The notes beneath the pieces are model-generated. The model made no database searches, was not told where the DNA came from, and saw only the letters and a program-made list of their open reading frames with translations. From IMG/VR virus record IMGVR_UViG_3300027754_000074: a DNA stretch of 64,000 nucleotides, one strand, 5' to 3'. This stretch comes from an uncultured virus (IMG/VR IMGVR_UViG_3300027754_000074). Taxonomy: Duplodnaviria; Heunggongvirae; Uroviricota; Caudoviricetes. Numbering within the stretch: position 1 is the first letter of the stretch; every line of letters begins with the position of its first letter. Positions 7,854-59,922 of this stretch are shown here, one piece after another. The position numbers and the translations under genes are program-made.

Positions 7854-7895
7854 AGCTTCCCCGATTATTCTACCGGTGTAAATATGTCCGATACC
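7854..7895. repeat. 42-bp palindrome family, copy 1 (left arm and core)
   Basis: AGCTTCCCCGATTATTCT-ACCGGT. Confidence 0.8.
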
Positions 7896-8531
7896 TCTAC
7901 GCTGAAAGGCACGCGCTTTCCGAAGCTCACCGAAAAACAGAAAGCCTCCCTGCTTCACGTTTGGCGCTACACGCTGAAGGGGCGCGAGCGGACGCCCGAC
8001 GCCGCCTTTTGGGAGAGTTACGGGATAGGAGATTACTCGACCGATAAGCACGTCCCGTTGCCTACCGCGAAGGCGTTGGAAAAGCAGGGGCTCGCCCGTG
8101 TCCGCGTCCATGATTCGTATCATTGGGTAACGGTAGCCCCCTTCAGGGATACCCGCTACGGACACAAAAAAGTGCGCGTGATAGATCACAGCGTCAAACT
8201 GACCCCCGAAGGGGAAGCGTTCGCGGCGGCATTGACCGCCCCCCGCCGCAACCCGTCCTCGAACGATCCGGGCCTGACCGTAGCGAAGCTGAAGCTCCGG
8301 CGGATCGCCCCCGGACACTATGAGCACGTCAACAAGGCTACGGGTACGACGTGGGAGATTTTCCACCGTACCCGCGAGTACCGGGGCGAAAACGAGTGGG
8401 TCTATTTTCGGACTGACGTTGAATGGGGTACAAGCACATGGTCGGAGGGCCGGGCGCACGATACTTTTTTCACGAAAGCGGATGCTGTCGAGGCGCTGGT
8501 TGACTATCTGCAAGAGCGAGACGGGCGATGA
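7884..8531 (+). CDS. Two-domain protein (winged-helix-like + RRNP + unknown)
   Basis: PKLTEKQ..LPTAKALEKQGL..LTPEG; start could be 7770. Confidence 0.75.
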   Translation: MSDTSTLKGTRFPKLTEKQKASLLHVWRYTLKGRERTPDAAFWESYGIGDYSTDKHVPLPTAKALEKQGLARVRVHDSYHWVTVAPFRDTRYGHKKVRVIDHSVKLTPEGEAFAAALTAPRRNPSSNDPGLTVAKLKLRRIAPGHYEHVNKATGTTWEIFHRTREYRGENEWVYFRTDVEWGTSTWSEGRAHDTFFTKADAVEALVDYLQERDGR

Positions 8532-9145
8532 AAACGATCTATGTGTACGGGGACGGCGCGGTTTGGAAGCTGTCACCCGCCGACGTTCGCGCTATTGCCC
8601 GTGATAAATCGTGGTACGAAGGCGGAAAGTACCCGCGAGGGAAACAACTCTCCGCGCACCAAAACCTTACGCGCCGTGGCGACTACGGGGCGTGGCGCAG
8701 CCTCCCCGCCGCTTTGTACGCGGATTCGATGGGGCGGCTATCCGCATGGGTGTCGGCAGAAACAGAGGTCTACCATTACGGCGACGACGATCAGATCGTG
8801 GCGGCGTGTGAAGATGCGGTCGCCGCCTCGCCCCGCCGCAACCCGGCACCGCTCCCGAAGCTGACCGAGACGCAGATCGCCGCGCTCCGCTACCTGAGTA
8901 AAGCTCGCTACGCGCCCGGCTGGCGAGACACGGGCAAGCATTGTCGGCTCCCGACCGCCCGCAAGCTGGCATCGCTGGGCTTAGTGGAAGTCAGGGCGGA
9001 AACGCAGCAGGAGCGCGTTTTTACGGGGGGGTTTATCAAAACAGGGCGGCCCGGCGGATCGCAGACGCATATAGATAGCTGGGTTGCGTTCGACGCTCGC
9101 TTGACCCCGCTGGGGAAAGAGACTTTGGCAGGATTGGCCCGATGA
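8528..9145 (+). CDS. Two-domain protein (unknown + RRNP + winged-helix-like)
   Basis: PKLTETQ..LPTARKLASLGL..LTPLG. Confidence 0.75.
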   Translation: MKTIYVYGDGAVWKLSPADVRAIARDKSWYEGGKYPRGKQLSAHQNLTRRGDYGAWRSLPAALYADSMGRLSAWVSAETEVYHYGDDDQIVAACEDAVAASPRRNPAPLPKLTETQIAALRYLSKARYAPGWRDTGKHCRLPTARKLASLGLVEVRAETQQERVFTGGFIKTGRPGGSQTHIDSWVAFDARLTPLGKETLAGLAR

Positions 9146-9173
9146 TTCTCTCGCGCTATACAAGGAAAAACCG

Positions 9174-9359
9174 ATGAAGACCCCCCGTATCGTACCCCCC
9201 GCGAAGCCGTTTGCCGTGGTCGCCCGCGCTATCCGGATCCTCGAATCCCGCTTCGACCGGATCCTCGTTACGGAGCCCGCGTCACCGGCGCGGGCGGCTA
9301 CGTTGCGCGCTCTCGAAGAGCGCCGTACCGCGCTCGCTGATAGTATCGGAGCCTGCTAA
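9174..9359 (+). CDS. Small hypothetical protein
   Basis: AAGGA RBS; TAATG coupling to next gene. Confidence 0.55.
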   Translation: MKTPRIVPPAKPFAVVARAIRILESRFDRILVTEPASPARAATLRALEERRTALADSIGAC

Positions 9360-10804
9360 TGCACTACCCCCGTCGAAACCCCGCCGTCCCGCTGGTTAGC
9401 GCCCTTGACGCGCTCGCTTCGATCCGCCTGCGGACGTGGCTACGCACGGGCAAGCACGCCGACCTCGCGGCGCAGGTAGTCGAGGGGGCTATCGCCCGTG
9501 CCGCCGCGTGCGCGACGACGGCGCAGGAGACGATCTACGACGCGGAGGGGCGCAAGTACCCGACCGTCTACCGCTTCGTGCCCGCCTACTTCGACGGGCG
9601 CACGGTCGCCACGTCGCACCGGGCGAAGGATTTGGAATGGGCGGAGGGCTACCCGCCGGAATTCCAGACCCGCGACCTCGGAAGCCCCGAAGAGTCAATC
9701 AAGATCCAGAACATCGCTACACACTTCGATCCGCTCCGGATGCTGGGGAAAAACCTCGACGCGACGTTAGGCCCGCCGGTAGTTTGGCAGGGCGACGACG
9801 AGCGCCTGTATGTGCTCGGCGGGAACGGGCGCACGCTCGCTTTCCTACGCGCCCCGGAAGAGGCTTACGAACGGTACTTGGAGCTTGGACGGTGCCTGTG
9901 GGCGGATTTTCCTGCGGGGGCCGCCCCGAAGGGCTCCCGATGGATGCTGGTACGAGTCGTCTCCCGCCTGACCAAAGGGCAAGCGGCGCAATTGGCCGCC
10001 GCCTCGCAGCTTTCTACCTCGGCGGATGAGGGGCGGATCGGGAAGGCTATCGGAATGGTTCGCTCGCTCAATATTCAACTGGAAAAGCTCCCCCCGTTTA
10101 TCTGGACGGAGCCTATCGCCCCGGACAACGTGCAGGCGTTCGACAAGGAAAACCCCGCTTTTGTCAACGCGATCCTCGCCAACATGGATCCCGCGAAACG
10201 CTCCCGCTACCGGGTAGATCCCGAATCGCTATCCGACGCTGTGAGCGCCGCTATGATCGCCTTTTTGCCGAAAGAGGCGCGGGGCGCGGGCGTGTTCAAG
10301 AATCGGAAGGTAGAGGACGCTTTTATCGGCGCACTACCGGCTATTTTGTCCTCCCATTCGCTTGCGAAGGGAGAGCAAATCTATCCCGAATATGACCTCT
10401 ACCTGCACATTCAGGGCGCTACCCGCACGTTCGAGGCGTTCCGTATTTTGCGGCTACCCCTCTCCGAATTGTCAAAACGGCTCAAAGTAGAGCAAAGTAA
10501 CGCCGTTTTAGAGGGGGCAAACGTCCGCGTATCGGATGCGAGCGACCTTGCTTTGGCGCTCGCCGCCGCACTTTACAATGCCTCGCAGCGAAGCGCCCCC
10601 GAAGACGCCGTAGCCGGGATACTCCGCGAATACCTCAACGTGGTGCAGAAGTTCAATCCGAAGCAGCAAACCATAGCTTTCGGGGAACCAAAAAAGCGCC
10701 CGGATCCCGGCGAGCTACTGGCGGAATTCGTGCCCCGGTTCGAGCTACCGCGCCGGTTCGATGCACCATCCGCACAGGTCGGGCTGTTAGGAATGGGAGG
10801 ATAA
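9359..10804 (+). CDS. DdrB-associated ParB/Srx-like domain protein with RRNP leader
   Basis: YPPEFQTRD...GPPVV...VLGGNGRTLA motifs. Confidence 0.7.
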   Translation: MHYPRRNPAVPLVSALDALASIRLRTWLRTGKHADLAAQVVEGAIARAAACATTAQETIYDAEGRKYPTVYRFVPAYFDGRTVATSHRAKDLEWAEGYPPEFQTRDLGSPEESIKIQNIATHFDPLRMLGKNLDATLGPPVVWQGDDERLYVLGGNGRTLAFLRAPEEAYERYLELGRCLWADFPAGAAPKGSRWMLVRVVSRLTKGQAAQLAAASQLSTSADEGRIGKAIGMVRSLNIQLEKLPPFIWTEPIAPDNVQAFDKENPAFVNAILANMDPAKRSRYRVDPESLSDAVSAAMIAFLPKEARGAGVFKNRKVEDAFIGALPAILSSHSLAKGEQIYPEYDLYLHIQGATRTFEAFRILRLPLSELSKRLKVEQSNAVLEGANVRVSDASDLALALAAALYNASQRSAPEDAVAGILREYLNVVQKFNPKQQTIAFGEPKKRPDPGELLAEFVPRFELPRRFDAPSAQVGLLGMGG

Positions 10805-11431
10805 ATGTCTGAAAGCGCAAAAAGCCTGCTCACGCTGCTACCCCGTCAAACGCAGACCGCCGCCGAATTGCTCCCGAAGGCGTGGCGGGCGGCGCTCATG
10901 GCTACACTCCCGCCGCTCTATCGCCTACACCGCATCGGCACGCGGGCGGAGTACGACGGGTGGGCGCAGCTTCCCGCCGTGGTCGAGCACGTTAGCCGTC
11001 TCCAGACCTCGATCCGCCGGGTGCTCCGGCGCGTCGAAGCGAGGGCCGCCCCGGCGGCGTCCTACCAACCGAGCCTGTTTAGCCAGATGGGCGGCGCTCC
11101 CCCTACCCCGAAGCCGTTAGGGCTGTTCGGGGCGGATACGCTGTCGGAAAAGGTGTGGGTCGATGAGCCGGATGGATCCGTACCGCTCCCCGCGCCGGGC
11201 ACGCTCGCCGCCTTGATCATCGCTCCGGACGGCGAGATTACGCCGGCGCAAAAAGCGGCGGTACTCTCCCGGTATGTGGACATCGCGCTCCAGAACGCGC
11301 CCGGTCAACTCCGGCTCGCCGGTCGCGCCCCGTCGCAGGTAGAGGCGTTTTCGCAGGCGATCCAAGAAGCGGCGAAGCGGCGGAACCCCCGGCGGAAACG
11401 GCGCACCCGTCGCCGTCGTCGGGCACGTTGA
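10805..11431 (+). CDS. Hypothetical protein with RRNP + poly-Arg tail
   Basis: Ends KRRNPRRKRRTRRRRRAR; internal QPSLF. Confidence 0.75.
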   Translation: MSESAKSLLTLLPRQTQTAAELLPKAWRAALMATLPPLYRLHRIGTRAEYDGWAQLPAVVEHVSRLQTSIRRVLRRVEARAAPAASYQPSLFSQMGGAPPTPKPLGLFGADTLSEKVWVDEPDGSVPLPAPGTLAALIIAPDGEITPAQKAAVLSRYVDIALQNAPGQLRLAGRAPSQVEAFSQAIQEAAKRRNPRRKRRTRRRRRAR

Positions 11432-11456
11432 CAACCCTACGCCGCTCGCGTATACT
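11428..11456 (+). promoter_or_regulatory. Sigma70-type promoter, probably leaderless
   Basis: TTGACA-17 bp-TATACT; ATG begins 7 nt after the -10 box. Confidence 0.8.
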
Positions 11457-11462
11457 GTGCGT

Positions 11463-12479
11463 ATGCCTAATCGAATCTACGTTACCCCCTCGTTTTTAGA
11501 CGTACTGCGCGACATCGCGGGGGATAGCCCGCTGGGCTTTTACCTCGAAGACCCCCCGCGCCACCATGAGCAGCACAGGTACGGCGTGCCCGTTGCCTTG
11601 CTCGCCCCCTTCCTGCCGGTACTGAGCCGGCGGATTGACGCTTGGGAGGTAGCTATGGCTACCGCCACCGGGCGCGGCCCGGACGGGCGGAGCGCCCTGA
11701 CGCGCCGGATCACGGAAGGGCGGGACGTGCTCGCTGCGGCGGGGGCTGAGTTTGTCCCCCCGGTGCTCGCGGTCGTGGTGTACCGGGTGACGCCACGCCT
11801 GCTCGACGCGCTCCGGGCGCGTACCCTCGCCCCGGCGGTTCGGGACGCCGTGGCGGAGGCCCGCCACCATGCGGAGAGCCACAAGTGGGAGGTAGCCGTC
11901 CCCGCGACGGCGCAGGCCGGCTTTCGGGCCGCGCTGGCTGACCTCCGGGCGGAGGTAGACGCCCGCCACGGGGGGGCGGTAGACGCGGAAAAGGCCCGGC
12001 TGGGCTGGCTTCGCCGCGAGCTTTCCGCGTTGGGCGTCGAGGAGCTACCGGTAGCTCGCGGGAAAATCGTACCCGCCCCCGTGGCGGCGCACGCGCTCCG
12101 GGGCCGCCGCAAAGAAGCCGCGCCCGCTCCGAAGCCGAAGGCAGCGCCCGCGCCCCCTGCGCCCCCCGCGCCTCCGAGCCGCGCCGAGCTTATCGCCGCG
12201 CTGGGAACCGCCCCGGACGCGGACATAGCCGCCCGGTTTGGATCCACCACGTCAGCGGTACGTCAGGCGCGCACGGCGCGGGAAATCCCGGCGTTTACCG
12301 CCGTGCGAGAGCGCGACATTGAAGCGACACTAACCGCGCACCCCGATTGGAGTATGCGCGCCGTAGCCCGTGCCCTTGGAGTCGCCGTTACCACGGTGAT
12401 CCGGACGGCGGAGCGGCTAAACGCAGGAAAGGGGCGGTCGCAAGCCTCCCTAAAAGAACAACGAAAAGGCAAGGTGTAA
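11463..12479 (+). CDS. Protein with C-terminal HTH domains
   Basis: DADIAARFG..; SMRAVARALGVAVTTVIR. Confidence 0.75.
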   Translation: MPNRIYVTPSFLDVLRDIAGDSPLGFYLEDPPRHHEQHRYGVPVALLAPFLPVLSRRIDAWEVAMATATGRGPDGRSALTRRITEGRDVLAAAGAEFVPPVLAVVVYRVTPRLLDALRARTLAPAVRDAVAEARHHAESHKWEVAVPATAQAGFRAALADLRAEVDARHGGAVDAEKARLGWLRRELSALGVEELPVARGKIVPAPVAAHALRGRRKEAAPAPKPKAAPAPPAPPAPPSRAELIAALGTAPDADIAARFGSTTSAVRQARTAREIPAFTAVRERDIEATLTAHPDWSMRAVARALGVAVTTVIRTAERLNAGKGRSQASLKEQRKGKV

Positions 12480-12480
12480 C

Positions 12481-13359
12481 GTGGCAGGTATCCCCGGAAA
12501 AGGCGGCAAATCCCGCGCAGAAACCGGCCTCTCCGGCCCCGAAGATCGGCGCGGTCGCGCTCATAGTCGGCTCGATGAGGCCGCCGTCGCGGACGGGCTC
12601 ATACAGGCGACATTGAACGGGTGGGGCGCTCCGGCGCTCGCTCGCTACCTCGGTATCTCCACGCCGACCGCTACACAGATCCTCTCCGGCAAAACGTGGC
12701 AGCACGTCCCCCGTCCTGCGGGGCTCACGAAGCAGCGGGCGGCGCGCTCCGCCCGCCTCTCGGACGCCGCCATTGAAGAGGGCTTGCGGGTCGCCCGCGC
12801 CTCCGGCTGGGGGGCGCATAAGCTCGCCCGCTACCTCGACGTGTCGCCGGCCACGGCAACCCGCTACCTCGCGGAGCGCGCCCTACCCGCGCCGCCTCCG
12901 CCCCCGCCCCCGCCTCCCGTGCGCGCCGCCCCCGTCGTGCTCCCCCGCCTTCCCCGTCCCCCCCGGATCCCGCTCATCATAGGGCTGGGAAGCGACCTCG
13001 ACACGGTGATAGCCGACCGGTTCAACGTGTCGCCGTCGCGGGTGCAGCAGCTACGCGAAATCGCCGGCATCCCGGCGTTTGTAGCCACGCGGCGCGAGGC
13101 AATCCGCGCCGTCGCCGGCTCGAAGAGTGACGCGGCGCTCGCCGCCGAATTGGGCGTAGATCGGAAGACGATCCGCAAGCACCGGCGCGAGGCGGGGATC
13201 GAGAACGAATACAGCGCGGCGGTCGCCAACCGGGACGCGACGATCCGGGCGCTCATCGCCGCCAACCCCGGCGCGAGCCTGCGGGCTATCGCCGCCGAAG
13301 CGGGCGTCAACGCAAGCACGGTAATGCGCGTCAGGAGAGCGATGGAGACGGGGGGGTAG
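12481..13359 (+). CDS. Multi-HTH DNA-binding protein (about 5 HTH units)
   Basis: LARYLGISTPT, LARYLDVSPAT, IADRFNVSPSRV, LAAELGVDRKTI, IAAEAGVNASTV. Confidence 0.8.
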   Translation: MAGIPGKGGKSRAETGLSGPEDRRGRAHSRLDEAAVADGLIQATLNGWGAPALARYLGISTPTATQILSGKTWQHVPRPAGLTKQRAARSARLSDAAIEEGLRVARASGWGAHKLARYLDVSPATATRYLAERALPAPPPPPPPPPVRAAPVVLPRLPRPPRIPLIIGLGSDLDTVIADRFNVSPSRVQQLREIAGIPAFVATRREAIRAVAGSKSDAALAAELGVDRKTIRKHRREAGIENEYSAAVANRDATIRALIAANPGASLRAIAAEAGVNASTVMRVRRAMETGG

Positions 13360-13386
13360 GCTTCGCCCCGCCTGCGACGTTTCGAG

Positions 13387-13428
13387 AGCTTCCCGGTTTA
13401 TTCTACCGGCGAAAATAACCGGGAAGGT
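13387..13428. repeat. 42-bp palindrome family, copy 2
   Basis: AGCTTCCCGGTTTATTCT-ACCGGC-GAAAATAACCGGGAAGGT. Confidence 0.9.
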
Positions 13429-13448
13429 GCGCGTAGCACGTTTCTGAT

Positions 13449-14075
13449 ATGTGCCCCGTAAAGGGCCGGGATAACGTCTTACACATGCGATTCGTCGATT
13501 CACCAGACCGCCTATTAGAGCACCTTCGCCCCGGATACCTAAAAGAATGGGTAGGGGACAACGTGATACCGATCCGGAAGGTTGTCAAAGCGACGGTATC
13601 CGACACGTTGCAAGCCATTTTCGCACAACACGCGGCATGGTTGAACGGTCAGAAAGGCGGGAAGCGCGCCGACCTGAGTGGGTGGGACTTGTATATGCTG
13701 GACGTAAATCTGTCCGGACTAAACCTGTCCCGCGCCATTCTCACCGGGGCAAACCTCGAACACCGAAACCTCCAAGGGGCCAAACTGACGGGGGCCAAAC
13801 TGACGGGGGCAAACCTAAACAATGCCGATCTAAGCGATGCCGATTTGAGCGGCGCAGACTTACGCAACGCAAGACTGGTTCTCGCCAACTTGCGGAGAAG
13901 CAACCTCCAGAACGTCAACGCGACAAAGGCGAATTTTGACGGTGCCGCTATGATCGATGCCGACATAACGGGCGCGAAGGGGCGGGAGATTGAGATTGCT
14001 TTCAATAGAGGGTACTTCGGATCGGAAAAAGACATAATATGGGCGCGGCGACAGCTTGCGATGCTCCGTCCATGA
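13449..14075 (+). CDS. Pentapeptide repeat protein
   Basis: A(D/N/K)Lxx repeats; start may be 13485. Confidence 0.85.
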   Translation: MCPVKGRDNVLHMRFVDSPDRLLEHLRPGYLKEWVGDNVIPIRKVVKATVSDTLQAIFAQHAAWLNGQKGGKRADLSGWDLYMLDVNLSGLNLSRAILTGANLEHRNLQGAKLTGAKLTGANLNNADLSDADLSGADLRNARLVLANLRRSNLQNVNATKANFDGAAMIDADITGAKGREIEIAFNRGYFGSEKDIIWARRQLAMLRP

Positions 14076-17000
14076 AGCGTAACCCCGACGCCGTAGCCCG
14101 TTTCCGTCCGCTCGCTTCCCCCGCGCTCGCCGCATGGCTCGACGGCAACGGGGAGGCGGTAGAGGCGGCGGCGTTCGGCGCGCTCCGGTACTCGGAGGCG
14201 GGCTCGATGGTGGTAGCCGCCCCCGTGGTCAAGGGGGCGGGGGATATGTCCTTCGAGGCGGCTATCGCGCTCGCCCGGTCGTGGGCGGAACAACTCGGAG
14301 ATATGCCGGCCCCGACGCCGAAAGAGGCAGACGACGCGGGCGCGAGCGTGTCTACCTACTCCGCCCTGCAAAACTACGGGGCGGTGCCCCCGTCGCTACT
14401 CGATTCGATGCCCGTTGAAATGCACCTCGCGGCTATTGAAACGCTCCGCCTACACTCGAAGACGCAGATCCCCCGCGACCTGTGGCAAGCCGCCTACGCC
14501 GCCATCCGCCACCAGTACGAGCAGGAGCGCGGAGCGCCCGCCCCCGAAGGGCGCTCCCGCCTGTACGCCCCGATGAAGAGCACGGGGCGGCTCGAAGACG
14601 GCACGGCTTACGAAGCCGACGAAAAGGGCGCGGTCGCGCTGGGTTTTCCATTATACAAACGGGGCGGGAAACAGGTAGGCGATCTATTGCTCGATGCCGG
14701 ATTGGCGCGCAAGGTGCAAGGCCGGTTCGGGGAGCAGATCAAGATTGATCCCGACGTAGGACGCTGGGAAAAGCGCAACGATGCGAGCGGAAAAGATGCG
14801 TGGTGGTTGATCGTAAACCCGCTGCGGGTGGCGGAGGTTGCCGCCGTGGTCGAGGGGCAGTACCCGGCGCTCGCCGCCGCGCTCCGGCAAAACGCGCCTA
14901 TCTGGCGAGCGGCGGCGGAAAAGGCCGGCGTCGTGCCGCGTGTAGCGACGGCGACGGCGGAAGCCGTAGCCGCTCCGGCGGTAGACTTGGCAAGCCTAAA
15001 CCCCGAAGGGGGAGCGGTGCCGGGGATGCGCTGGGAGTGGTCGCCGGGATCCCTGTCCGTTGACCTACTGTTCGACCGGGGCGCAAAAGCCCTGCTGTCT
15101 GCGGGCGGTGTCGCGTTTTCGTGGGCGACCCGGAACCGACACACGGGGGAGCCCGCCGACCGCCGCACGCCGAGCGCGGACATCGCATGGTGGGTGCGCG
15201 TGCCTACGACGCAGCTTGACGCGCTGGGACGGGCTACGATGCCGCTTCCCGAGGCTCACGCCGCCGTGCTCACCCTATCCCCGTCGTGGGGCGGAACCCG
15301 ATCCGCCCTGAAGCAGAGCCGCGAAGAGGGCGTCACCGAAGAAGGATCGTGGCGCACGCTTCCAAACGGAACGGTGCAGCTTTACACGGTCTACAAACAA
15401 TCCGCGATGGGCTGGCAAAAAGGCGCTATCGGCGCGGTTGTCAAAATGTCAAAAGACATGGGGGGAAAGTGGTACTTTTCCTTTCCCGAGAAGCGGGCAA
15501 CGCTGGTCGCGGCGGCGCTCCGCGAGCACTACCCCCGGCTGGCGGAGGCGCTGGGGCGCTCGTTCGGCGGGGTGGCGCGCACGATTGACGAAGAGGCCGG
15601 CAAGTGCGATCCGCTGGTCGATATGTCGAACGCGCCAAACCCGGCGGCGGTAAAACACCCTATCGGGCAGGCGGTGATCGAGGACGTGATCAAGGCGCTG
15701 AAGCTGCGGCTCCCGCACGGGATGATCCCCTACCCGTATCAGACGGTCGGTATCGCGTTCTCGAAATTGGCCGGATACCGGGCGCTGATCGGGGACGCGA
15801 TGGGCCTCGGAAAAACGATCCAAGCTATCGGATGTCTCGCCGTAGATCCGGAGCAATTGCTACCGGCTATCGTGGTTTGCCCCGCGAGCGTGCTCTACAA
15901 CTGGCAGGCCGAAATCAACAAGTGGCTACCCTCCGTGCCCGTGATCGTTTTGGCTACAGGCAGCGCGCCGCTCCCGCCGAAGGGCTGGAAAGGCGTCATG
16001 GTGGTAACGTGGAATCAGCTAGTATCTCGCGGCCCGGCGCTCGAAGCGTGGGGGCTGAAGTGCATTATTGCCGATGAGGCGCACAAGGCGAAAGAGCCTA
16101 CAACAAGCTGGACAAAGGTATTGGCCGCCCTATCGGAGACGGTGCCGCACATCCTCATGCTGACGGGTACGCCGGTCAAAAACCGGGTGATCGAGCTTTG
16201 GAGCTTGCTACGGATGCTCGATCCAGACAGCTACGGGTCGAAAACGGAGTTTGGAAAGGAATATACCAACGTCGAAACCGTCAAGATCGGCGGCGGGAAG
16301 ACCGCCACGAAGTACGAAGGCGGAAAGAACCTCGAAGCCTTGCAACAACGGCTCCGCTGCATCATGGTACGCCGGCTGAAAGAGGACGTGCTATCTGACC
16401 TTCCCCCGAAGCGGCGGGTATCGCTCGAAGTGGAAATTCCCGACAAGTCGCGGGCAGATTATGAGCGCGCCCGCGAGGAATTCGCGGATTGGCTGGAGGG
16501 GGCGTTGGAGCGCAAGATCAGCGCGCAGTACGTCAAAGACGGGATCGATCCGAAGTCGGCTACGGCGGAGATCCGGCAGGAGGTAGCGGAGCGCGCCGAG
16601 CGGGCGCTACGGGCGGAGCAACTGGTCAAGATCGGATACCTCCGGCGCTTGGTCGGCGTGGCGAAGATCGAGCCTGCGCTCGACAAGATCGAGGAATTCG
16701 TGGAGGCGGGGGAGCCGCTGGTCGTGTTCGCGGAGCACGCGGATGTCGTGCAGGGGATTCAAGAAGGGCTGAAAAAGGCAAAAATCAAGTTTGTAACGGT
16801 AGACGGGTCTACCTCTCTCGCGGCGCGGGAAGCGGCAAAAAACGCTTTTCAGGCCGGCGGCGTGGACGTGTTTATCGGCACGCAAGCGGCGAAAGAAGGA
16901 ATCACGCTCACCCGTGCTTCTAACACGCTTTTTGTAGAACGCTGGTGGACGCCGGGCGACGAAGAGCAGGCGGAGGATCGTATCCATCGTATCGGGCAGA

Positions 17001-17473: not shown

Positions 17474-17478
17474 TGCGC

Positions 17479-17507
17479 TTGCTTACGCACCCGCAATAGC
17501 ATACGCT
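17479..17507 (+). promoter_or_regulatory. Putative promoter, probably leaderless
   Basis: TTGCTT-17-TACGCT; ATG 17514 begins 7 nt after. Confidence 0.5.
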
Positions 17508-17513
17508 GGGGGA

Positions 17514-18226: not shown

Positions 18227-18434
18227 AGGGGAGAACGGCGCATAGAGTACGTTAGACGCGACGTTTCGCGTGGGCGCGCATGGTGCGCGCTACGCAAAAC
18301 GACGTGCGCGAGAATCGGCGTTCGCCGCCCCTTTGGCTAAAGCGTAGGTATAACCGCGCTTTCTCGAACACTTGTGATAATACGCATTATCGCAAGTTTG
18401 CCCCGGCGGCGGGGTTCGCCGTCCGGTGAAAAAG

Positions 18435-20254: not shown

Positions 20255-20312
20255 GCACATCCCTACCCCGTACCGTTTCGAGAGCTTCCCGATTGTTTCT
20301 ACCGGTAAAATA
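20212..20312 (+). repeat. ~100-bp direct repeat (left) containing palindrome copy 3
   Basis: Matches 26357-26457 with few mismatches; core ACCGGT at 20301. Confidence 0.9.
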
Positions 20313-20356
20313 TTTGCACGCGGGCGTGCTCGCCGGAGATCGAGTAAGCTCCCCCC

Positions 20357-26399: not shown

Positions 26400-26469
26400 G
26401 CACGTCCCTACCCCGCACCGTTTCGAGAGCTTCCCGATTCTTTCTACCGGTAGAATAAACCGGGAAGCT
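26357..26469 (+). repeat. ~100-bp direct repeat (right) containing palindrome copy 4
   Basis: 26428-26469 AGCTTCCCGATTCTTTCT-ACCGGT-AGAATAAACCGGGAAGCT. Confidence 0.9.
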
Positions 26470-32322: not shown

Positions 32323-32364
32323 AGCTTCCCGGTTTATTCTACCGGCAGAATGATCGGGGAAGCT
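32323..32364. repeat. 42-bp palindrome family, copy 5
   Basis: AGCTTCCCGGTTTATTCT-ACCGGC-AGAATGATCGGGGAAGCT. Confidence 0.9.
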
Positions 32365-38305: not shown

Positions 38306-40104
38306 ACGCCCTTGCGGCCCTCCAGAGGCTACGCGCAGCGCGAACCGCCGCCGTGGTCGGAGTGATACCCGCAGAGAGAACGGTGAATGTTTCTACCGGT
38401 AATAATAAACCGGAAGCTCTCGACGCCGGGCGGGCGCTCGTTGCCCGCGCCGCCGTCTCCAAAGCCGTGCAAACCGAAGCGCGGCGTATTCTGGCGCTCC
38501 CGGTATGGTCGCCCGCTGAGGCTTTCGAGCTAGCGAAGCCGGGCGGCCCGCTCGACCTGACCGACACCTACCGCGCACCCGGCGGGACGCTCACCCTGAA
38601 GCCGATCCAAAACCTCGCCCTCCGCTGGATCGCGGAGCGGCGGGGGCTCATCGGGCCTATCGCCGTGGGCGGCGGGAAGACGTTGATCACCCTGCTTGCG
38701 GCAAGCGCCATGAAGGCGCAACGCCCCGTCCTGCTCATCCCGCCGACGTTGCAAATTCCGCTGCGGCAAGAAATGGAAAAGCTGGGAAAACACTTTATCC
38801 TCCCTAAGAATCTCCATATCATACCCTACTCCCGCCTGAGCGTGGCATCGAGTACCGCCATGTTGGAAGAGCTATGCCCCGACTTGATCATAGCGGATGA
38901 GGCGCACAATCTCCGGAACCCGGACGCGGCGCGCACGAAGCGCGTACTACGGTATTTCAAGGATTTTCCTAGCACGCGATTCGTCGCCCTGTCCGGTACG
39001 CTGACCTCGAAGAGCCTCCGCGACTACGCGCACCTATGCGAGCTTGCGCTACGGGAAGGATCGCCGCTCCCGAAAGAACAGGCCGATTTGCTCGCGTGGG
39101 CGAATTGCATCGACGCGAACGGGGAGCCGCAGGATAAAGATTGGAGCTTGTTTGCGGCGTTCTCGGATGTGCGCCGCGTTCCGATAACCGACCGGCAGGA
39201 GGTAGCCCGCGAAGTGTTCCGGCAGCGATTCGTGGTTACGCCCGGCGTGGTGGCGACCACAGAGGCGTCGGTACAATGCTCGCTATTGTTCCATGAGCGC
39301 CGCCCTGCGGTGCCTACGGCGGTCGCGGACGCGCTCGCTGACCTTGCCCGGACGTGGTGCCGCCCGGACGGCGAAGAGATGGATTCGGCGCTCGCCCTGT
39401 GGCGGCTGGGGATGCAGATTAGCCAAGGGTTTTACCTGCGCTGGGTATGGCCCGGCGGCGTGGTAGACCACGAATGGATGAACGCCCGCGCCGCGTGGCA
39501 TCGAGAGGTAAGGTACACCCTGCAACGCAGCGTCACGGGGATGGATTCGCCCTTTTTGGTGTACCGCGCCGTGGTTACCGGCGTGCTCACCGATCCTTCG
39601 ATCCAACGGGCGTGGGCGGCGTGGGACAAGGTGCGCCACCGACCGAAGCCGCCGACTGAGACGGTGTGGATTGACGACTACTTGATCCGGGACGCGCTCG
39701 CGTGGCACGCGGATCACCCGCAGGGCATTATCTGGCACGCGGATCGCGCTACGGAAACGGCGCTCCGAGCGGCGGGGATCCCCACCTACGGGCGCGGGGA
39801 AGTCCCCCCGCTCGACGGTAGCAAGGGCGGGATCGCCTGCTCAATCCGCGTTCACGGTACGGGGCTGAATATGCAGGCGCACGCCGAAAATCTGATCCTG
39901 TCGTGGCCGTCCAGCGGGAAAACCTGCGAGCAATTGATCGGGCGCACGCACCGGCAGGGGCAGGAAGCCGACGAAGTAGCGGTTTGGTACTACGCGCATA
40001 CCGGCGCGGCGCGGGATGCGCTCGCCACGTCCCGCGCCGATGCCCGGTACATCGAGGACACGCACGGCTCCCCGCAAAAACTTTGCTACGGTGTTTTCGT
40101 CTAA
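38302..40104 (+). CDS. SF2 helicase
   Basis: VGGGKT, IIADEAH, LSGT, QLIGRTHRQGQ. Confidence 0.85.
   Translation: MNALAALQRLRAARTAAVVGVIPAERTVNVSTGNNKPEALDAGRALVARAAVSKAVQTEARRILALPVWSPAEAFELAKPGGPLDLTDTYRAPGGTLTLKPIQNLALRWIAERRGLIGPIAVGGGKTLITLLAASAMKAQRPVLLIPPTLQIPLRQEMEKLGKHFILPKNLHIIPYSRLSVASSTAMLEELCPDLIIADEAHNLRNPDAARTKRVLRYFKDFPSTRFVALSGTLTSKSLRDYAHLCELALREGSPLPKEQADLLAWANCIDANGEPQDKDWSLFAAFSDVRRVPITDRQEVAREVFRQRFVVTPGVVATTEASVQCSLLFHERRPAVPTAVADALADLARTWCRPDGEEMDSALALWRLGMQISQGFYLRWVWPGGVVDHEWMNARAAWHREVRYTLQRSVTGMDSPFLVYRAVVTGVLTDPSIQRAWAAWDKVRHRPKPPTETVWIDDYLIRDALAWHADHPQGIIWHADRATETALRAAGIPTYGRGEVPPLDGSKGGIACSIRVHGTGLNMQAHAENLILSWPSSGKTCEQLIGRTHRQGQEADEVAVWYYAHTGAARDALATSRADARYIEDTHGSPQKLCYGVFV
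38377..38418. repeat. 42-bp palindrome family, copy 6 (intragenic; core and right arm)
   Basis: TTTCT-ACCGGT-AATAATAAACCGGAAGCT. Confidence 0.75.
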
Positions 40105-43167: not shown

Positions 43168-43209
43168 AGCTTCCCGGTTATTTTCGCCGGTAGAATAATC
43201 CGCGCTTCG
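43168..43209. repeat. 42-bp palindrome family, copy 7
   Basis: AGCTTCCCGGTTATTTTC-GCCGGT-AGAATAATC. Confidence 0.85.
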
Positions 43210-43263: not shown

Positions 43264-43503
43264 GTGACCGATTTAGCCCCCTCTCTCGCTTCCCTGTTAG
43301 TGACCTACCGGCAACGCGCCGGGCTGGGTATGGCGGGGGCGGCCCGCACGCTTTCGCTCGCCCGTCAGACGCTATGGCGCTGGGAGAACGGGCGGCGGTC
43401 GCCCGACCACGACGAGCTACGCCTCCTGCTCGACCTGTACGACGCGACCGCCGATGAGCGGGAAGCGGCGGAGCGTGCGCGCCGCGCCGGGCTGGCAGTA
43501 TGA
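43264..43503 (+). CDS. XRE-family HTH protein
   Basis: YRQRAGL..LARQTLWRWENGRRSP. Confidence 0.85.
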   Translation: MTDLAPSLASLLVTYRQRAGLGMAGAARTLSLARQTLWRWENGRRSPDHDELRLLLDLYDATADEREAAERARRAGLAV

Positions 43504-49534: not shown

Positions 49535-49576
49535 AGCACGCCGGATCATTCTACCGGCACAATAAAACAGACTTCA
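49535..49576. repeat. 42-bp palindrome family, copy 8 (degenerate)
   Basis: AGCACGCCGGATCATTCT-ACCGGC-ACAATAAA. Confidence 0.6.
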
Positions 49577-49633
49577 CCCCCCTGCACGGGGGCGACCGTT
49601 ACCCCCGTGCTTTTCAACACCCCCGGAGAGACA

Positions 49634-54059: not shown

Positions 54060-54435
54060 TACCCCCGATCCGTCCGCTTCGTGGATCGCCCCCGACGCTA
54101 TCCGCCTCCCTCTGCTCGCCGCCCGCGCCGCCCTGAAGGACGCGGAGGACACGCTTACCGATATGATGGCGGGCTACCTCCGCGACCGTATCGAGCGGGC
54201 CGCCCCCGTTGACCGCTTGAATATGCTCCAAGGGCTCTCCGCGCAGTACGCGGCGGAGGGGGACACCGACGCCCCCGCCCGCTTGGCTGCGGCGTGGGCG
54301 GACTGTGAAGCCGCCTATGCCGGAGTGGTATGGGCGGAGCGCGCCTACAGCGACGGACTACCCCCCGACATTGGCCTAAGCGTTGTCGTCTCCCCCCAAA
54401 TTTTCCCTACCTCCGAGGATGAATCCCCATGCTGA
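54052..54435 (+). CDS. Hypothetical protein
   Basis: GGAGG RBS before GTG. Confidence 0.65.
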   Translation: MANTPDPSASWIAPDAIRLPLLAARAALKDAEDTLTDMMAGYLRDRIERAAPVDRLNMLQGLSAQYAAEGDTDAPARLAAAWADCEAAYAGVVWAERAYSDGLPPDIGLSVVVSPQIFPTSEDESPC

Positions 54436-55139
54436 AACTTACGATCTACATCGAGCCGCACACGCCGGCCAAAGCCGCCTCCCCGATGGGAAACGCGCTC
54501 GCGCTCCTGAATGACCCGGAGCGCCTGAAAGCCACCATAGCGGCGTTTCGGGAGGCGTTCGAGGGCTACGCACCCCCCGCACCCGCAACGGAGCTTCCCG
54601 AATCTATTTACCGGCAGAATAAACCGTCCGTCGTCGCGGAGCCCGCCCCCCTTCCCGCGACACCCCCGGCGGCGGAAAACGCTCCAGAAGCCCCCGTAGC
54701 GTCCGCAAACGAAACGGCCATGCTCCGCTACTCCGCGATGCTCTACGAGGGCGAACAATGCTTCGACACGCTGATCCGGACGTGGGTGCAAAACTACGGC
54801 GTGGATACCGCCCCGCAGCCGGATCGCGTGGGCTCGCTTATGGGCGCTATCACCGGGCACGGCCCGGCGTTCGGTGCCTACGTCCGTGAGCGCGGCGGGC
54901 TCGCCGGTGCCTGCATCGACAGTATCGTAAGGCAGAGCCTTGTCGCCGTCGAAGACGCCGTAAAGCTGGGGCAAGACGTGGCGCTCAACATGGTACAGGT
55001 GGGCTCCGGCGTAGGTGCCCCGATGGATACCCTGCTCGAAAAGAGTATGTTCCGCCGCGAGCTTCACGATGCGCCCCCCGCGCCCGGCACGCTCCCGGCG
55101 ACCGAGTTTGATCGCTCTACCCTCCCCCTCCCGCACTAA
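54429..55139 (+). CDS. Hypothetical protein
   Basis: 236 aa, coupled. Confidence 0.7.
   Translation: MLKLTIYIEPHTPAKAASPMGNALALLNDPERLKATIAAFREAFEGYAPPAPATELPESIYRQNKPSVVAEPAPLPATPPAAENAPEAPVASANETAMLRYSAMLYEGEQCFDTLIRTWVQNYGVDTAPQPDRVGSLMGAITGHGPAFGAYVRERGGLAGACIDSIVRQSLVAVEDAVKLGQDVALNMVQVGSGVGAPMDTLLEKSMFRRELHDAPPAPGTLPATEFDRSTLPLPH
54592..54633. repeat. 42-bp palindrome family, copy 9 (intragenic)
   Basis: AGCTTCCCGAATCTATTT-ACCGGC-AGAATAAACCG. Confidence 0.8.
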
Positions 55140-56231: not shown

Positions 56232-56837
56232 ATGTACCGCCGTAACGCTTCCGCCTCATCCGCCGACACTACCGCCGCGACGGAGCTTGCCCTGTTCGCA
56301 GCCAACGACGGCGACCTGTACCGCTCGCAGGCGCAGCCGATCATTACGAACCTTGCCAAGAAAATGGGGAAAGGACAATATGACGAGGCGAAAGCCGCGA
56401 AGCTGTGGGGCTACTTCGCAAACACCGCCGCGCAAAAGTACGCATGGGAGTTCGGGGATCGCAAGCGCGGAACCCGGTCATGGCGGGAGCAAAGCGTAGA
56501 CGGTAACGGTATGTTCAACGCGGCGACCCGCCGCTTTGCGAGCGCGGAGCTTGAACACCACTACCGCGACGAGGTGACCTCGTTAGCGACCACGGCGCGG
56601 ATGTCGGCGCGCAGCAACCCCCGTTCGAGCGGGCAGACCTACAACGGGCACCCGTCGCGGGCACATTGGAACGTCGCCCTGTGGGTAGCAAACGACTACG
56701 GATTGTATCAAGCCGTCTCGCGCATGGGGAAAGCAGAGGCGGTAGAATTCCTCATGGATAGTTTTCCGCGCACACCGGACGGCGTGAAAATGACGAAAAC
56801 CCTTGCCGCCTACGCATGGCGCAGCTTGAAGGATTGA
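56232..56837 (+). CDS. Two-domain RxN polyprotein (MYRRNASASS leader)
   Basis: GGAG RBS; linker ARMSARSNPR. Confidence 0.8.
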   Translation: MYRRNASASSADTTAATELALFAANDGDLYRSQAQPIITNLAKKMGKGQYDEAKAAKLWGYFANTAAQKYAWEFGDRKRGTRSWREQSVDGNGMFNAATRRFASAELEHHYRDEVTSLATTARMSARSNPRSSGQTYNGHPSRAHWNVALWVANDYGLYQAVSRMGKAEAVEFLMDSFPRTPDGVKMTKTLAAYAWRSLKD

Positions 56838-56842
56838 CCCCC

Positions 56843-58021
56843 ATGTACCGCCGTAACGCTTCCGCCTCATCCTCCGTACTCGACGCCGCACGCGCCGTCG
56901 CGGATCTTTCGCGCACCCTGACCGCCTCCTATGTGAGCGCCCGCCTGTCCACGCTGGGCGGGGAAAACAGGGCTTCTACCATAATCACCGTTAGTCTCGA
57001 CCCCAAGAGCGCGTGGACTAACGGCGTCCTCCAGAATAGCCGTTATGCGTTGTTTTCGGTGCATCCGGCGGATGGGACTATCGAGCTTTTTTCGGGCTCC
57101 GGAATCCCGAAGTTTCGCAAGGCTCAATTCAAGACGCCTGCGGAAGCCGTCGCCAAGATCGAAGCGTGGGTGGGGAAGGCGCGGATGTCGGCGCGCAGCA
57201 ACCCCCGCGTGCCGCGCACCCTCCACCCCGGCAAGGGCACCTACGGAGCCTACCGCCGCCGGCCCGGCCCTCAATGGGATGCTAACTTTACCGACGAGGA
57301 AAAGCGCAACTGGCGGCTGTTCTACCATTCGCCGCAGGGTCGGGCAACGCAGAAAGCACTACTTACGGCGCGTGGCCCCGACGAAACCGCTCACTTCCGG
57401 TCGGAGAACCCCGCACACGCTCCGCGCCATAATCCCGGCTTCGGGGACTACCTCGCCGCCGGTCGCCGGCACCTCGCTACCGGCTTGACGAAAGCGGCGG
57501 AAGAGGCGCAGCGCGCCGCCGAGCGCGCCCGTGCCGCCGCCGACCGCGAAGCCAAGCGCCGCCAATGTGACGCCCCGACCCCGGAGCAGGCGATCCGCGT
57601 GCTGGCACAGGCGGTAGGCGTGGCGAAGCTGAACCCCCGCAAGAAAACCCCTTATGGCCCCAAGTTCAACCGCGACGGAACCGTTACGCTGTGGGATGTC
57701 TACACCCAAAGTTGGGATCGTACCTCTCAACCCAGCGACCGCGATCTTGCCTCGCTGGACGCCGCAGAGCGCGCCCGTGTTATCCGGCACTTGAAGCTAA
57801 ACCCCCGCAAGAACGCCGGGCAGAACGCGCCGGGCCTTTATCCAATTTCCAGCCTAAAAAAAGGCGAATTCTTCAAGCGTAAGCCGGATGCGCGCAAGGT
57901 TTACGTCAAAGGCGACTATGACCGCTCGGAGCGCACCTACACGGGGACGGACACGGAAGACATTAGCCGGGCTATCTACCTCAAAGGCACTACCCGCGTA
58001 TACGTCGGCTTCGACTACTAG
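56843..58021 (+). CDS. Multidomain RxN polyprotein (MYRRNASASS leader)
   Basis: RSNP, SENP, RHNP, KLNP, KLNPRKNA linkers. Confidence 0.8.
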   Translation: MYRRNASASSSVLDAARAVADLSRTLTASYVSARLSTLGGENRASTIITVSLDPKSAWTNGVLQNSRYALFSVHPADGTIELFSGSGIPKFRKAQFKTPAEAVAKIEAWVGKARMSARSNPRVPRTLHPGKGTYGAYRRRPGPQWDANFTDEEKRNWRLFYHSPQGRATQKALLTARGPDETAHFRSENPAHAPRHNPGFGDYLAAGRRHLATGLTKAAEEAQRAAERARAAADREAKRRQCDAPTPEQAIRVLAQAVGVAKLNPRKKTPYGPKFNRDGTVTLWDVYTQSWDRTSQPSDRDLASLDAAERARVIRHLKLNPRKNAGQNAPGLYPISSLKKGEFFKRKPDARKVYVKGDYDRSERTYTGTDTEDISRAIYLKGTTRVYVGFDY

Positions 58022-58577: not shown

Positions 58578-59428
58578 ACGAAATCCAACCGCTGATCATG
58601 CCCGCAGGCGTCACGGCTACCCCCGTGACCCTCGATCCGCCGAAGACCTACCACCTCCCCAATTGGGGGCGGATGTCCGATCCGGATCGCCTAAAGTTTC
58701 TCCGCTCGGTCGCGGAGCAACGCGGGCGCGACCCCCGGATCCGTGAGCTTGCGTTCACGTTGATCGCCGGCACGCAGGAACGCGACTACCCGGCGCAAGC
58801 CGCCCGCCTCCTGAAAGCGGTGCAACCCGGCGGCCCTCTCATGGCTTACGTCAATGAGCCGGGCGAGGTATTGCAGGATCCGATCTACACCCTGAAGGTA
58901 AAGGCCGGCGATTGCGACGATGCCGCCTTGCTTTTGTCGTCTCTTTTCGAGGCGCTTCGGATGCCTTGGCGCTACGTCCTCTCCGGCATGAACCCGATCA
59001 CAAAAGAGCGGGTTCGCTGGGTAGAAGGTACGCCGTACCCGCACGGCGTCCGCTGGGCGCACATTTACACGCGGGTAGGCTGGCCGGTCTTCGCGCCGAA
59101 AACGTGGGCGTGGGCGGAGCCGACCGTCCGTAACGCCCCCCTCGGCTGGGACGTGACCGGGCACATGGAACGCACCGGGCAAGCCGGCTTGCCGGAGCTT
59201 GGAGACGCGGGCGCTCCGGCGCTCCCCGTGAGCAACGCCCCCGTGACGATTACCGCCCCGCCGTCTGCTCTCCGCGACATCGCTACCCGCATCGGCGGCA
59301 GCGTGGCAGGTAGCGGGCAGCGGGGGCTTGTGGAGACGGTGCTCCTCAGCGTGGCGGCTACCGTGCTCGCTACCGCCGTGCTCGACTACCTACGCGCCCG
59401 CAAAGTGATCCCGACGCCCTCCCGATAG
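58574..59428 (+). CDS. Transglutaminase-like (papain-fold) protein with C-terminal TM helix
   Basis: YVNEP, GDCDD, WAHIY, AEPT; hydrophobic C-terminus. Confidence 0.8.
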   Translation: MNEIQPLIMPAGVTATPVTLDPPKTYHLPNWGRMSDPDRLKFLRSVAEQRGRDPRIRELAFTLIAGTQERDYPAQAARLLKAVQPGGPLMAYVNEPGEVLQDPIYTLKVKAGDCDDAALLLSSLFEALRMPWRYVLSGMNPITKERVRWVEGTPYPHGVRWAHIYTRVGWPVFAPKTWAWAEPTVRNAPLGWDVTGHMERTGQAGLPELGDAGAPALPVSNAPVTITAPPSALRDIATRIGGSVAGSGQRGLVETVLLSVAATVLATAVLDYLRARKVIPTPSR

Positions 59429-59463
59429 TGGCGGGTGCGCGTGCGCGTGCATATACGCATCGT

Positions 59464-59820
59464 ATGTCACACGCTTTTGTAGAGCTTCCGGAATGGATCA
59501 ATCAAAACACCGTCGAAGAGGCGTACCGCCTGTGCAAAATGGCGCAGGAAGGTCGCCGCCAATCGCTCGCTAACGCCGGGATGCGCGCCGCTCGCGCCCG
59601 TGACGCCCGGTTGCTAAAAGCGCTCGAAGGGGGCGCGGAAGTTTTGCACCGGATGAGCGAGCGCCAATTGGGCGGTACGTTCAACGTCGGGGGGCTTCGG
59701 GTACAGTCTACCGAATTCCAATTGTGGCGCAACGCTTACGAGCGCGCCGACGAAGGCGTAGCGGACGGTCACTATGAATGGATCTACGGCGCGGCGGCGC
59801 TGCTTGCGGGGCTCGCCTAA
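59464..59820 (+). CDS. Hypothetical protein
   Basis: Open frame; start uncertain. Confidence 0.6.
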   Translation: MSHAFVELPEWINQNTVEEAYRLCKMAQEGRRQSLANAGMRAARARDARLLKALEGGAEVLHRMSERQLGGTFNVGGLRVQSTEFQLWRNAYERADEGVADGHYEWIYGAAALLAGLA

Positions 59821-59880
59821 GCCCTTTCCGGCGCGTTTGGAGCGCGGGGGGTGCCACGGCTCCGGTTACGCCCGCCGGTG

Positions 59881-59922
59881 AGCTTCCCGGTTTATTTTAC
59901 CGGTAGAATGTTTCGCCCTTCT
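59881..59922. repeat. 42-bp palindrome family, copy 10
   Basis: AGCTTCCCGGTTTATTTT-ACCGGT-AGAAT. Confidence 0.85.

Follow-up and report, generated by a model that had tools for sequence, protein, structure and literature searches.

The 64-kb stretch of DNA analysed here, referred to throughout as the window, belongs to an uncultured virus (Caudoviricetes) catalogued in IMG/VR as record IMGVR_UViG_3300027754_000074, and the sequencing runs that contain its sequence are freshwater or lake metagenomes, with no RNA run listed among them. The window is 60-68% GC throughout, and its long coding-like frames lie nearly all on the + strand. Its recognisable products are a DarA_C protein, a DdrB-type ParB-superfamily protein, two paralogous proteins with multiple helix-turn-helix (HTH) motifs, a pentapeptide-repeat protein, an SNF2 helicase, two integrase-family recombinases, a Dda-like helicase, a VapE-type primase-helicase, a PD-(D/E)XK nuclease, a DEAD helicase, a family A DNA polymerase, small HTH proteins and a DNA methyltransferase. 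Among the products of the 64-kb window, neither a capsid protein nor a terminase could be recognised, and a related contig of 92.7 kb gave only weak virion-type matches, for which reasons we speak of a phage-like mobile element. The subject of this report is a 42-bp near-palindrome that recurs along this element at near-even intervals of about 5.6 kb, and that we tentatively read as the docking site of a regulator encoded by the element itself.

Eleven near-palindromes, their spacing and their form

An earlier, sequence-only reading of the window had listed ten copies of a 42-bp palindrome, and all ten are present at the cores that it gave (7872, 13405, 20301, 26446, 32341, 38395, 43186, 49553, 54610 and 59899; each copy is named below by the position of its core). 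A 42-bp weight matrix built from these ten copies and scanned over the window scores them at 40.8-60.0, picks out a single weaker copy with its core at 4275 (25.2), and drops to 10.4 at the next-best position. The total is thus eleven instead of ten, and of the many more irregular copies that would have spoken against an array, the matrix scan of the window returns nothing beyond core 4275. The 12-mer CCGGTTTATTCT, with at most one mismatch allowed, occurs six times where 0.22 occurrences are expected, and none of 100 shuffles reaches six.

The gaps between the ten copies (5533, 6896, 6145, 5895, 6054, 4791, 6367, 5057 and 5289 bp) are correct as first given, and they average 5781 bp with a standard deviation (sd) of 672 bp and a coefficient of variation (CV) of 0.116. 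The gap added by core 4275 is 3597 bp, shorter than the others, and with all eleven copies the mean gap becomes 5562 bp (sd 937 bp, CV 0.169). Tested against random placement, as the sequence-only reading had proposed, the spacing proves far more even than chance, in that none of 200,000 uniform draws and none of 200,000 random picks from 72 gene starts was as even; the second of these results bears out the claim that the placement of the copies is not explained by operon boundaries alone. The array is near-regular and not strictly periodic or phase-locked, as the residual sd from the best line is 678 bp and the lag-1 autocorrelation of the gaps is -0.21. Tandem duplication of a 5.8-kb unit was considered as the source of the spacing and was rejected, the paralogues in question being only local.

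The copies share an overall layout of 18-6-18, that is, an arm, a 6-bp core and a second arm. CCGG is invariant in all eleven copies, as is the AG at positions 1-2. An inner dyad, WTTCT-ACCGGY-AGAAW, is conserved around CCGG, which alone is invariant within it, and the inner arms (consensus TTTATTCT and AGAATAAA) are AT-rich within 65% GC sequence. The outer blocks are preserved less equally. The left one, AGCTTCCCGG, matches at 9 or more of its 10 positions in eight copies and at 3/10 in one copy; the right one does so in three copies (at least 9/10), matches at 8/10 in one more, and falls to 5/10 or less in seven of the eleven. The palindromic consensus first proposed for the repeat therefore stands as to its dyad and its CCGG core, but not as to the symmetry of its outer arms, since the left block is widely kept and the right one mostly lost; AGCTTCCCGG is retained chiefly on the side that the genes are read from. 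Leave-one-out scoring puts six copies clearly in the forward orientation, finds four near-symmetric and leaves 38395 as the one reversed copy. The 6-bp core is ACCGGT, which is its own reverse complement, in six of the eleven copies.

A dyad around a fixed core is what a dimeric helix-turn-helix protein reads, and the invariant dyad argues for a dimeric DNA-binding protein here as well; a dyad-symmetric docking site for a protein would be the simplest reading of an invariant CCGG flanked by AT-rich inner arms. The idea that the copies are restriction sites was also entertained, as the cores fit RCCGGY; CCGG is not depleted, however (743 observed vs 773 expected), and the idea was rejected.

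Placement, transcription signals and related elements

Eight of the eleven copies lie between genes and the other three in open frames. In eight copies a stop codon is found 0-80 nt to the left, and in seven a candidate + strand start is found within 100 nt to the right or inside the right arm. The weakest copy, 4275 (4257..4298, + strand; forward score 25.1, reverse 10.4), directly follows the stop of gene 2853-4256, at a distance of 0 nt, and copy 43186 (43168..43209, + strand) has the stop of a small HTH gene (42938-43156) 11 nt to its left and an XRE-type HTH gene (43264-43503) 54 nt to its right. Distances of 27-28 nt are seen at three copies: 13405 (13387..13428, no strand assigned), which keeps both outer arms and sits 27 nt past the stop of a multi-HTH gene and 20 nt before an ATG at 13449; 20301 (20283..20324, + strand), 28 nt past a stop and upstream of a gene for a tyrosine recombinase of 515 residues; and 26446 (26428..26469, no strand assigned), also 28 nt past a stop and the best palindrome of the set. 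The remaining three lie 60-80 nt past a stop. Copy 7872 (7854..7895, + strand) has kept its left arm and lost its right arm, inside which a candidate ATG is found at 7884; copy 59899 (59881..59922, + strand) is 60 nt past a stop and precedes gene 59969/60020-60613; and copy 32341 (32323..32364, no strand assigned) is a full palindrome between convergent genes, abutting the 3' end of the minus-strand gene 32363-32929, which has relatives in 15 loci. The stop distance of 32341 counts an unsupported open reading frame (ORF), 31869-32252, and the supported gene 31663-32046 stops 276 nt away.

The sole reversed copy, 38395 (38377..38418, - strand; forward score 27.0, reverse 38.3), occupies codons 26-39 of the DEAD-helicase gene. 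Relatives conserve the 24 residues that the gene encodes upstream of the site (LNALAALQRL... in the window, MNDAFAALQR... in the relatives), similarity resumes at residue 40, and the site itself forms a linker that is variable among relatives; because the helicase N-terminus upstream of the site is conserved, this copy is truly intragenic. Copy 49553 (49535..49576, + strand) lies within the open frame 49316-50326, which has an in-frame ATG preceded by a Shine-Dalgarno sequence at 49634, and copy 54610 (54592..54633, + strand) lies in a Pro/Ala-rich linker of the open frame 54429-55139 and has no start codon nearby. In both, the GC content at third codon positions (GC3) is coding-like on either side of the site, and the upstream parts have no homologue support. 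Of the two copies that had been placed inside ORFs, 38395 is thus securely so, and 54610 is in an open frame with coding-like GC3. The consensus is open in one of its three reading frames, which is the frame used by 38395 and 49553 (and by 7872, if ORF 7770-8531 is real); 54610 is read in another frame, where the C at core position 6 avoids a TAG.

Two likenesses extend beyond the copies themselves. Copies 20301 and 26446 have near-identical stretches of 80-100 bp on their left (20181-20282 and 26326-26427), which include a GC-rich hairpin and the last 13 codons (ending in AVEAPPRARKGRG and the stop) of two otherwise different upstream genes; this suggests that a boundary segment was copied as a unit. 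A 12-mer, GTAGCACGTTTC, is found at 13433-13444 and 59953-59964, shortly before the candidate starts that follow copies 13405 and 59899; as a common downstream leader it follows only these two copies, and a one-mismatch copy of it lies at 25437.

When the copies are inspected by eye, a hexamer that has A as its second and T as its sixth letter is found at core position 6 or 7 in ten of the eleven. These -10-like hexamers are TAGAAT (three times), CAGAAT (twice), TAAAAT, CATAAT, CACAAT, GAAAAT and AATAAT. A scan for the sigma-70 consensus (a TTGACA-like -35 and a TATAAT-like -10 element, 16-18 bp apart) has none of the eleven sites among its hits, and the sites bear no -35 likeness. Only three + strand sites with a good -35 element precede genes in the 64 kb (11428, 42902 and 56179), and the host-type promoters at 11428 and 42902 look unlike the palindromes. 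At 11428, TTGACA-17-TATACT is followed by an ATG 6 nt after the -10 element, and at 42902, TTGACA-18-TAAGGT is followed by a GTG at the same distance of 6 nt, so that the messages from 11428-11465 and 42902-42945, both for HTH proteins, are probably leaderless. Within the spacer of the 42902 promoter lies a CACCTGTC/GACAGGTG dyad, and promoter and dyad are conserved together behind the polymerase gene in seven related loci (L001, L004, L006, L008, L009, L012 and L112). Strong canonical intrinsic terminators at 18967-18994, 19954-19983 and 48572-48592 interrupt the gene array and, as there are only three good -35 sites, further transcription start sites are needed. The first two, separated by about 1 kb, are the same strong terminator (CCCGCTCCGAAAGGGGCGGG and then a T run), and each of them follows a small gene.

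The palindromes themselves are not called in a terminator scan for a hairpin and T run (0/11). One terminator-like call, at 59874-59891, overlaps a copy; it is weak, its stem has 5 pairs, and its end falls in the left arm of 59899. Hairpins at -17 kcal/mol or below, with stems of 16-18 bp, are formed by three of the eleven copies (13405, -17.2; 26446, -19.1; 32341, -21.3 kcal/mol), and the remaining eight fold at only -2 to -9 kcal/mol; copy 4275 retains a 7-bp outer stem though both of its arms differ from the consensus. Structure in the 80-nt stretches upstream of the copies is not clearly above background (z +0.4 to -1.8), Rfam at gathering thresholds gave no matches, and a tRNA scan found none.

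Outside the window, the strict pattern AGCTTCCCGNTTNNTTCTACCGG has no match in the genome (185,579 species), metagenome and viral collections. In viral contigs the inner 16-mer was found at 31 loci, all of them in 23-56% GC sequence and none with related flanks, and these were taken as chance. Megablast of 33000-45000 against phages and plasmids gave no match, and no close relatives of the primase are present in the viral contigs. The family A DNA polymerase is recorded on contigs of up to 75.7 kb, and many of its metagenome relatives are about 65% identical. Relatives of the element were collected by a polymerase profile, which gave 80 metagenome loci and 16 genome loci, the closest DNA-compared ones being 55-68% identical; one polymerase relative, P0002, is 89% identical, and the DNA-level comparison of the motif covered the 55-68% relatives. 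In the loci of these relatives the order of the replication module is kept, and no such palindrome, equivalent or lattice was seen at syntenic places or elsewhere; one palindrome detector used in these comparisons was so strict that it missed the window's own copies. A motif restricted to one lineage is usual for fast-evolving regulatory sites.

Both the motif and an evenly spaced word family are missing from the complete related contig of 92.7 kb (C152). The replication module, 32363-43156, which is bounded in the window by copies 32341 and 43186, is intact in C152, and the blocks that neighbour it lie on opposite sides in the window and in C152; the other breakpoints between the two (at about 45.3-45.7 kb and at 48.5 kb) have no copy. 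Short contigs assembled from four DNA runs were also compared with 26000-45999 at a likeness threshold of 80, and among the 15 joints listed (there are 61 further ones, all in assembled contigs only) none lies within 50 bp of the four cores in this interval. Several of the listed contig pieces end about 130 bp or less from a copy; such ends are uninformative on site variation, since they are expected where copies have 31-letter words in common.

Readings of the array and comparable systems

With rather less than even confidence, we favour the reading that the 42-bp elements would be docking sites for an HTH regulator encoded by the element, serving as promoter-operator modules at the borders of gene blocks. 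A role in transcription is indicated by the association with gene borders, the -10-like hexamer in its fixed place, the conserved block at the -35 position and the bias towards keeping the upstream arm. A sequence-specific DNA-binding protein of the element would dock at sites that border the ~5.6-kb blocks of a nearly one-way gene array. The right inner arm (yAgAAT) would be the -10 element, with the left outer block lying where a -35 element would sit, and RNA polymerase, which the bound regulator would either help or block, would begin transcribing to the right some 7 nt beyond the hexamer. Copies that would be useless as promoters, namely 32341, which faces a convergent gene, and 38395, which is reversed within a gene, would act as operator or roadblock only, and selection for a single point of regulatory entry or stopping in each ~6 kb could lie behind the even spacing.

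The likeliest binders would be the two paired-HTH paralogues of 340 and 292 residues, whose genes (11457-12479 and 12481-13359, + strand) form an operon (11428..13359) that is led by the strong host-type promoter at 11428 and ends 27 nt before the second of the ten listed copies (13405), or else the XRE/HTH_31 protein of 79 residues (43264..43503, + strand), the first gene after copy 43186. DNA-binding genes flank these two copies. The paralogues have a common C-terminal pair of HTH motifs, and such a double-HTH C-terminus would suit a two-block arm; the XRE/HTH_31 protein has no relative in the loci of related elements. The ParB-like protein (9359..10804, + strand), which the sequence-only reading had put forward as a candidate binder, turns out to be a weak one. 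It is of the DdrB type, with a score of 26.2 bits to Pfam ddrB-ParB against a cut-off of 27.6, its Atlas neighbours are ddrB-ParB clusters, and it has a GxxRxxA-like stretch (GNGRTLA), but no HTH was found in it at E up to 1. Better candidates are the two paralogues with paired HTH motifs and the XRE protein specific to this lineage, each of which is encoded beside a copy.

Several points weigh against a promoter-operator role. No copy passes the sigma-70 scan and the block at the -35 position is unlike TTGACA, so that an activator or another sigma factor must be assumed. A number of copies give an equally good -10-like hexamer on the other strand, and the hexamer may simply be part of the binding site. 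Copy 32341 is directed at the 3' end of a genuine convergent gene, 38395 is reversed inside a gene that starts upstream of it, 54610 is without a nearby start codon, and the 6-to-1 bias in orientation is not significant alone (two-sided sign test, ~0.13). The copies tend to be nearer to the upstream stop (0, 11, 27, 28 and 28 nt) than to the next start, a pattern that suits a boundary or stop element no less than a promoter. The transcriptional model, moreover, predicts no even spacing and leaves it unexplained, yet the spacing is the most significant feature of the array.

The unexplained evenness, together with the convergent copy and the reversed intragenic copy, keeps alive the genome-organising lattice of the sequence-only reading, in which an element-encoded protein, for instance a ParB-like clamp or a bridging protein with several HTH motifs, would load or bridge at the copies and so coat, loop or condense the whole DNA. 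The spacing itself would then have been selected, and gene borders and protein linkers would be where a 42-bp site is tolerated. We hold this transcription-independent role to be rather doubtful, and consider it a minority possibility to be taken seriously that, more broadly, a site every ~5.6 kb was selected so that the element's own protein could load along the molecule to loop, coat, silence or protect it. A lattice would account for a spacing more even than random or gene-start placement (0/200,000 for each), for the one copy forced into the variable linker of the helicase gene and the two more in open frames, and for the way in which the embedded copies stay open, including 54610 with its TAG-avoiding C; the core unit is a dyad, and the element does encode a ParB-superfamily protein with a GNGRTLA stretch. 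That protein is, however, below the Pfam cut-off and has no recognisable HTH or partner. Eight of the eleven copies are at gene borders, and the upstream outer arm is preferentially kept, which a symmetric structural site does not need; relatives with the same replication module have no such sites, so that a lattice is not a conserved need of the group, and the array is only near-regular. Of the lattice as first proposed, the even spacing has thus held up, but promoter operators, which had been named as the outcome that would speak against it, are at least as likely as a structural lattice. We regard as unlikely a pure roadblock or insulator, comparable to the stoperators of mycobacteriophages, at which a bound repressor would halt polymerase arriving from the left and so silence or insulate gene blocks without any promoter. 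The eight copies that lie 0-80 nt past stop codons (32341 by way of the unsupported ORF 31869-32252) are in keeping with it, as is the conservation of the outer arm that a rightward polymerase meets first; copy 32341 would shield the convergent gene from read-through, the element has temperate-like genes (two of the integrase family and those for XRE HTH proteins), and stoperators offer a precedent (PMC9283540; PMC4351075). Stoperators are nevertheless described as short, asymmetric and monomer-bound (PMC9283540), as opposed to the long dyads found here. The sites in the window are also far fewer, at about one per 5.6 kb, and there is no sign of a lysogenic state.

Hairpins acting in RNA or single-stranded DNA, be it as terminators, as RNase III or mRNA-stabilising stems, as priming signals for the primase-helicase or as cruciforms, are a very unlikely explanation, since eight copies cannot fold stably. 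The three copies with stems of 16-18 bp (-17 to -21 kcal/mol), the 7-bp outer stem kept by 4275 and the location of 32341 where a two-way terminator is expected all suit such a role, but there is no Rfam match, and no palindrome was called as a terminator although the element has canonical ones elsewhere. Hardly more can be expected of the sequence-only proposal that the copies are recombination sites for the two tyrosine recombinases, with shufflon-, integron- or lox-like exchange of ~5.8-kb blocks, which we judge to be highly improbable in spite of the arm, 6-bp core, arm layout, the location of both integrase-family genes between copies 20301 and 26446, and the fact that 32341 and 43186 flank exactly the module that is intact in C152 with its neighbours on opposite sides there. 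The core is symmetric in six of the eleven copies and hence has no direction; the arms are 18 bp long and one of them is unrecognisable in most copies, whereas sites of the lox, FRT, dif or sfx type have both arms, inverted and of about 11-13 bp, around an asymmetric spacer of 6-8 bp that sets the direction. Ten directly oriented sites would delete essential replication genes, and of the 15 joints listed none comes within 50 bp of a core, in itself weak evidence that covers contigs only and leaves 61 further joints. As C152 is without the motif, its gene order was not made at these sites, and its other breakpoints are without a copy. The least credible of these explanations is a selfish miniature palindromic insert, akin to repetitive extragenic palindromes (REP) or miniature inverted-repeat transposable elements (MITE), that spread within the lineage. 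In-frame palindromic inserts are known in the form of the Rickettsia palindromic elements, and the motif here is lineage-specific, its 42 bp amount to 14 codons that are in frame in linkers, and copies are found just after stops. The pattern, in its strict form, is nonetheless missing from the genomes of 185,579 species and from the viral and metagenome collections, where elements of the REP, bacterial interspersed mosaic element (BIME) or MITE type have many host-chromosome copies; no target duplications were seen, divergence is in one arm only, and random insertion predicts no even spacing.

Dispersed sites for a regulator are already known in phages and plasmids. The conserved inverted repeats (CIRs) of Streptomyces phage phiC31, of about 17 bp, bind repressor at many intergenic sites of the early region; like the copies described here they are recurring inverted repeats, and they stand beside unusual conserved promoters in a GC-rich temperate phage, with no even spacing that we know of. 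The IncP plasmid RK2 has 12 OB sites on ~60 kb, which to our knowledge are not evenly spaced either. KorB, the global regulator of RK2, acts at promoters from near or far via these OB operators (PMC11790492), and the resemblance lies in a palindromic operator that is dispersed over a mobile element of similar size and read by a protein which that element encodes. As the source describes it, KorB belongs to the canonical CTPase clamps of the ParB type and has an HTH, and OB is a short exact palindrome (PMC11790492); the ParB-like protein here is without an HTH, and in place of an N-terminal ParB CTPase domain joined to a site-reading HTH there is only the ddrB-ParB match of 26.2 bits. Sites of the parS/OB kind are near-exact palindromes of about 13-16 bp; in the window the inner dyad is conserved, with CCGG as its sole invariant part.

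The stoperators of Cluster A mycobacteriophages such as L5 and Bxb1 are a further case of a regulator site repeated across a genome (PMC9283540, PMC6550527). In these accounts they too are repeated, lie largely in short intergenic spaces, are biased relative to the direction of transcription and affect transcription of the whole genome; unlike the evenly spaced 42-bp dyads of the window, at about one per 5.6 kb, they are 13-14 bp long, asymmetric, monomer-bound and much denser. Stoperators have one orientation, compared with the six forward, one reversed and four near-symmetric copies here, whose core unit is a dyad. Cluster O mycobacteriophages have 17-bp dyad repeats, TGTTCGG-N3-CCGAACA, in more than 30 copies and of unknown function (PMC4351075). 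These are likewise scattered dyads, found intergenically, near gene 5' ends and within genes, with a dimeric binder predicted, but they are short, exact and concentrated at one genome end, and even spacing is not among the features that the account reports (PMC4351075); the arms of the copies in the window are long and bipartite, with one outer arm often lost. The PeSL cassettes of T4-type phages, which combine an early promoter with a terminator stem-loop (PMC2839356, PMC4122927), are comparable as repeated intergenic motifs at the borders of shuffled modules, in the way that the module between two copies here has rearranged neighbours in a relative. As described, however, PeSLs flank small cassettes in hyperplastic regions and contain a known early promoter, whereas the copies in the window border blocks of ~5.6 kb that include core replication genes, the promoter is putative, and only three of eleven form hairpins.

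What sets the array apart is its even spacing, which is not described in the cited accounts of stoperators, Cluster O repeats, KorB or PeSLs, and our search of the literature for near-equally spaced sites along phage-like genomes found no description, turning up only work on CRISPR and unrelated work. If the spacing is functional, it would point to an uncharacterised length-dependent process on viral DNA, for which the reach of a sliding or looping protein and the distance over which transcription stays productive are candidates; a lattice, if true, would be of a genome-wide kind not described for phages. If the copies are ordinary lineage-specific promoter-operators, they would still give a practical map of where the transcription units lie in an uncharacterised freshwater phage-like element. 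Direct tests are within reach, as the site is long and specific, there are eleven copies of it, and few candidate binders are encoded alongside.

Other features of the window and of related loci

Between the divergent genes 32363-32929 (- strand) and 33258-33992 (+ strand), just upstream of the primase-helicase, lies an AT-rich region of ~220 bp (within 32930-33330) with long inverted repeats and paired TTTCGTGGACGG / CCGTCCACGAAA boxes, which looks like an origin and/or a divergent control region. Short motifs of the NPRRN, NPRKN or RHNP type are repeated in large unassigned proteins (genes 1094-2836, 2853-4256, 9359-10804 and 56816-58021) and may be a common processing or targeting signal. 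The only match in the window to the motif of two-barrel RNA polymerases, D.D[GI]D, is the DNA polymerase. Over the whole window CTAG is nearly missing (9 observed vs 141 expected) and GGCC is halved (243 vs 549), and CCGG, GCGC and GATC are near their expected counts. A run of about 12 GAC triplets is found at 27205-27247 within gene 26966-27274.

The related contig C152 has an intergenic cassette of its own, ~90 bp long and present in 12 copies between small genes at 10285-25960 (loci L128-L129). It consists of a terminator hairpin with a T run and a second hairpin (AGGGCT...AGCCCT), followed by ACAGGAG and ATG. The same contig has five loci with tandem GTGCAC-N5-GTGCAC arrays before genes starting ATGGCTCGCG. 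In other related loci, inserts of ~1-1.5 kb interrupt the matches to the polymerase (L008, L009, L011 and L012) and to the DEAD helicase (L001, L003, L012 and L112); homologues carry intein, HNH or LAGLIDADG Pfam domains, and the window's own genes are uninterrupted. The window also contains a pair of tandem paralogues, 46250-47230 and 47146-48216, which are 56% identical, and the pair is found in C152 as well.

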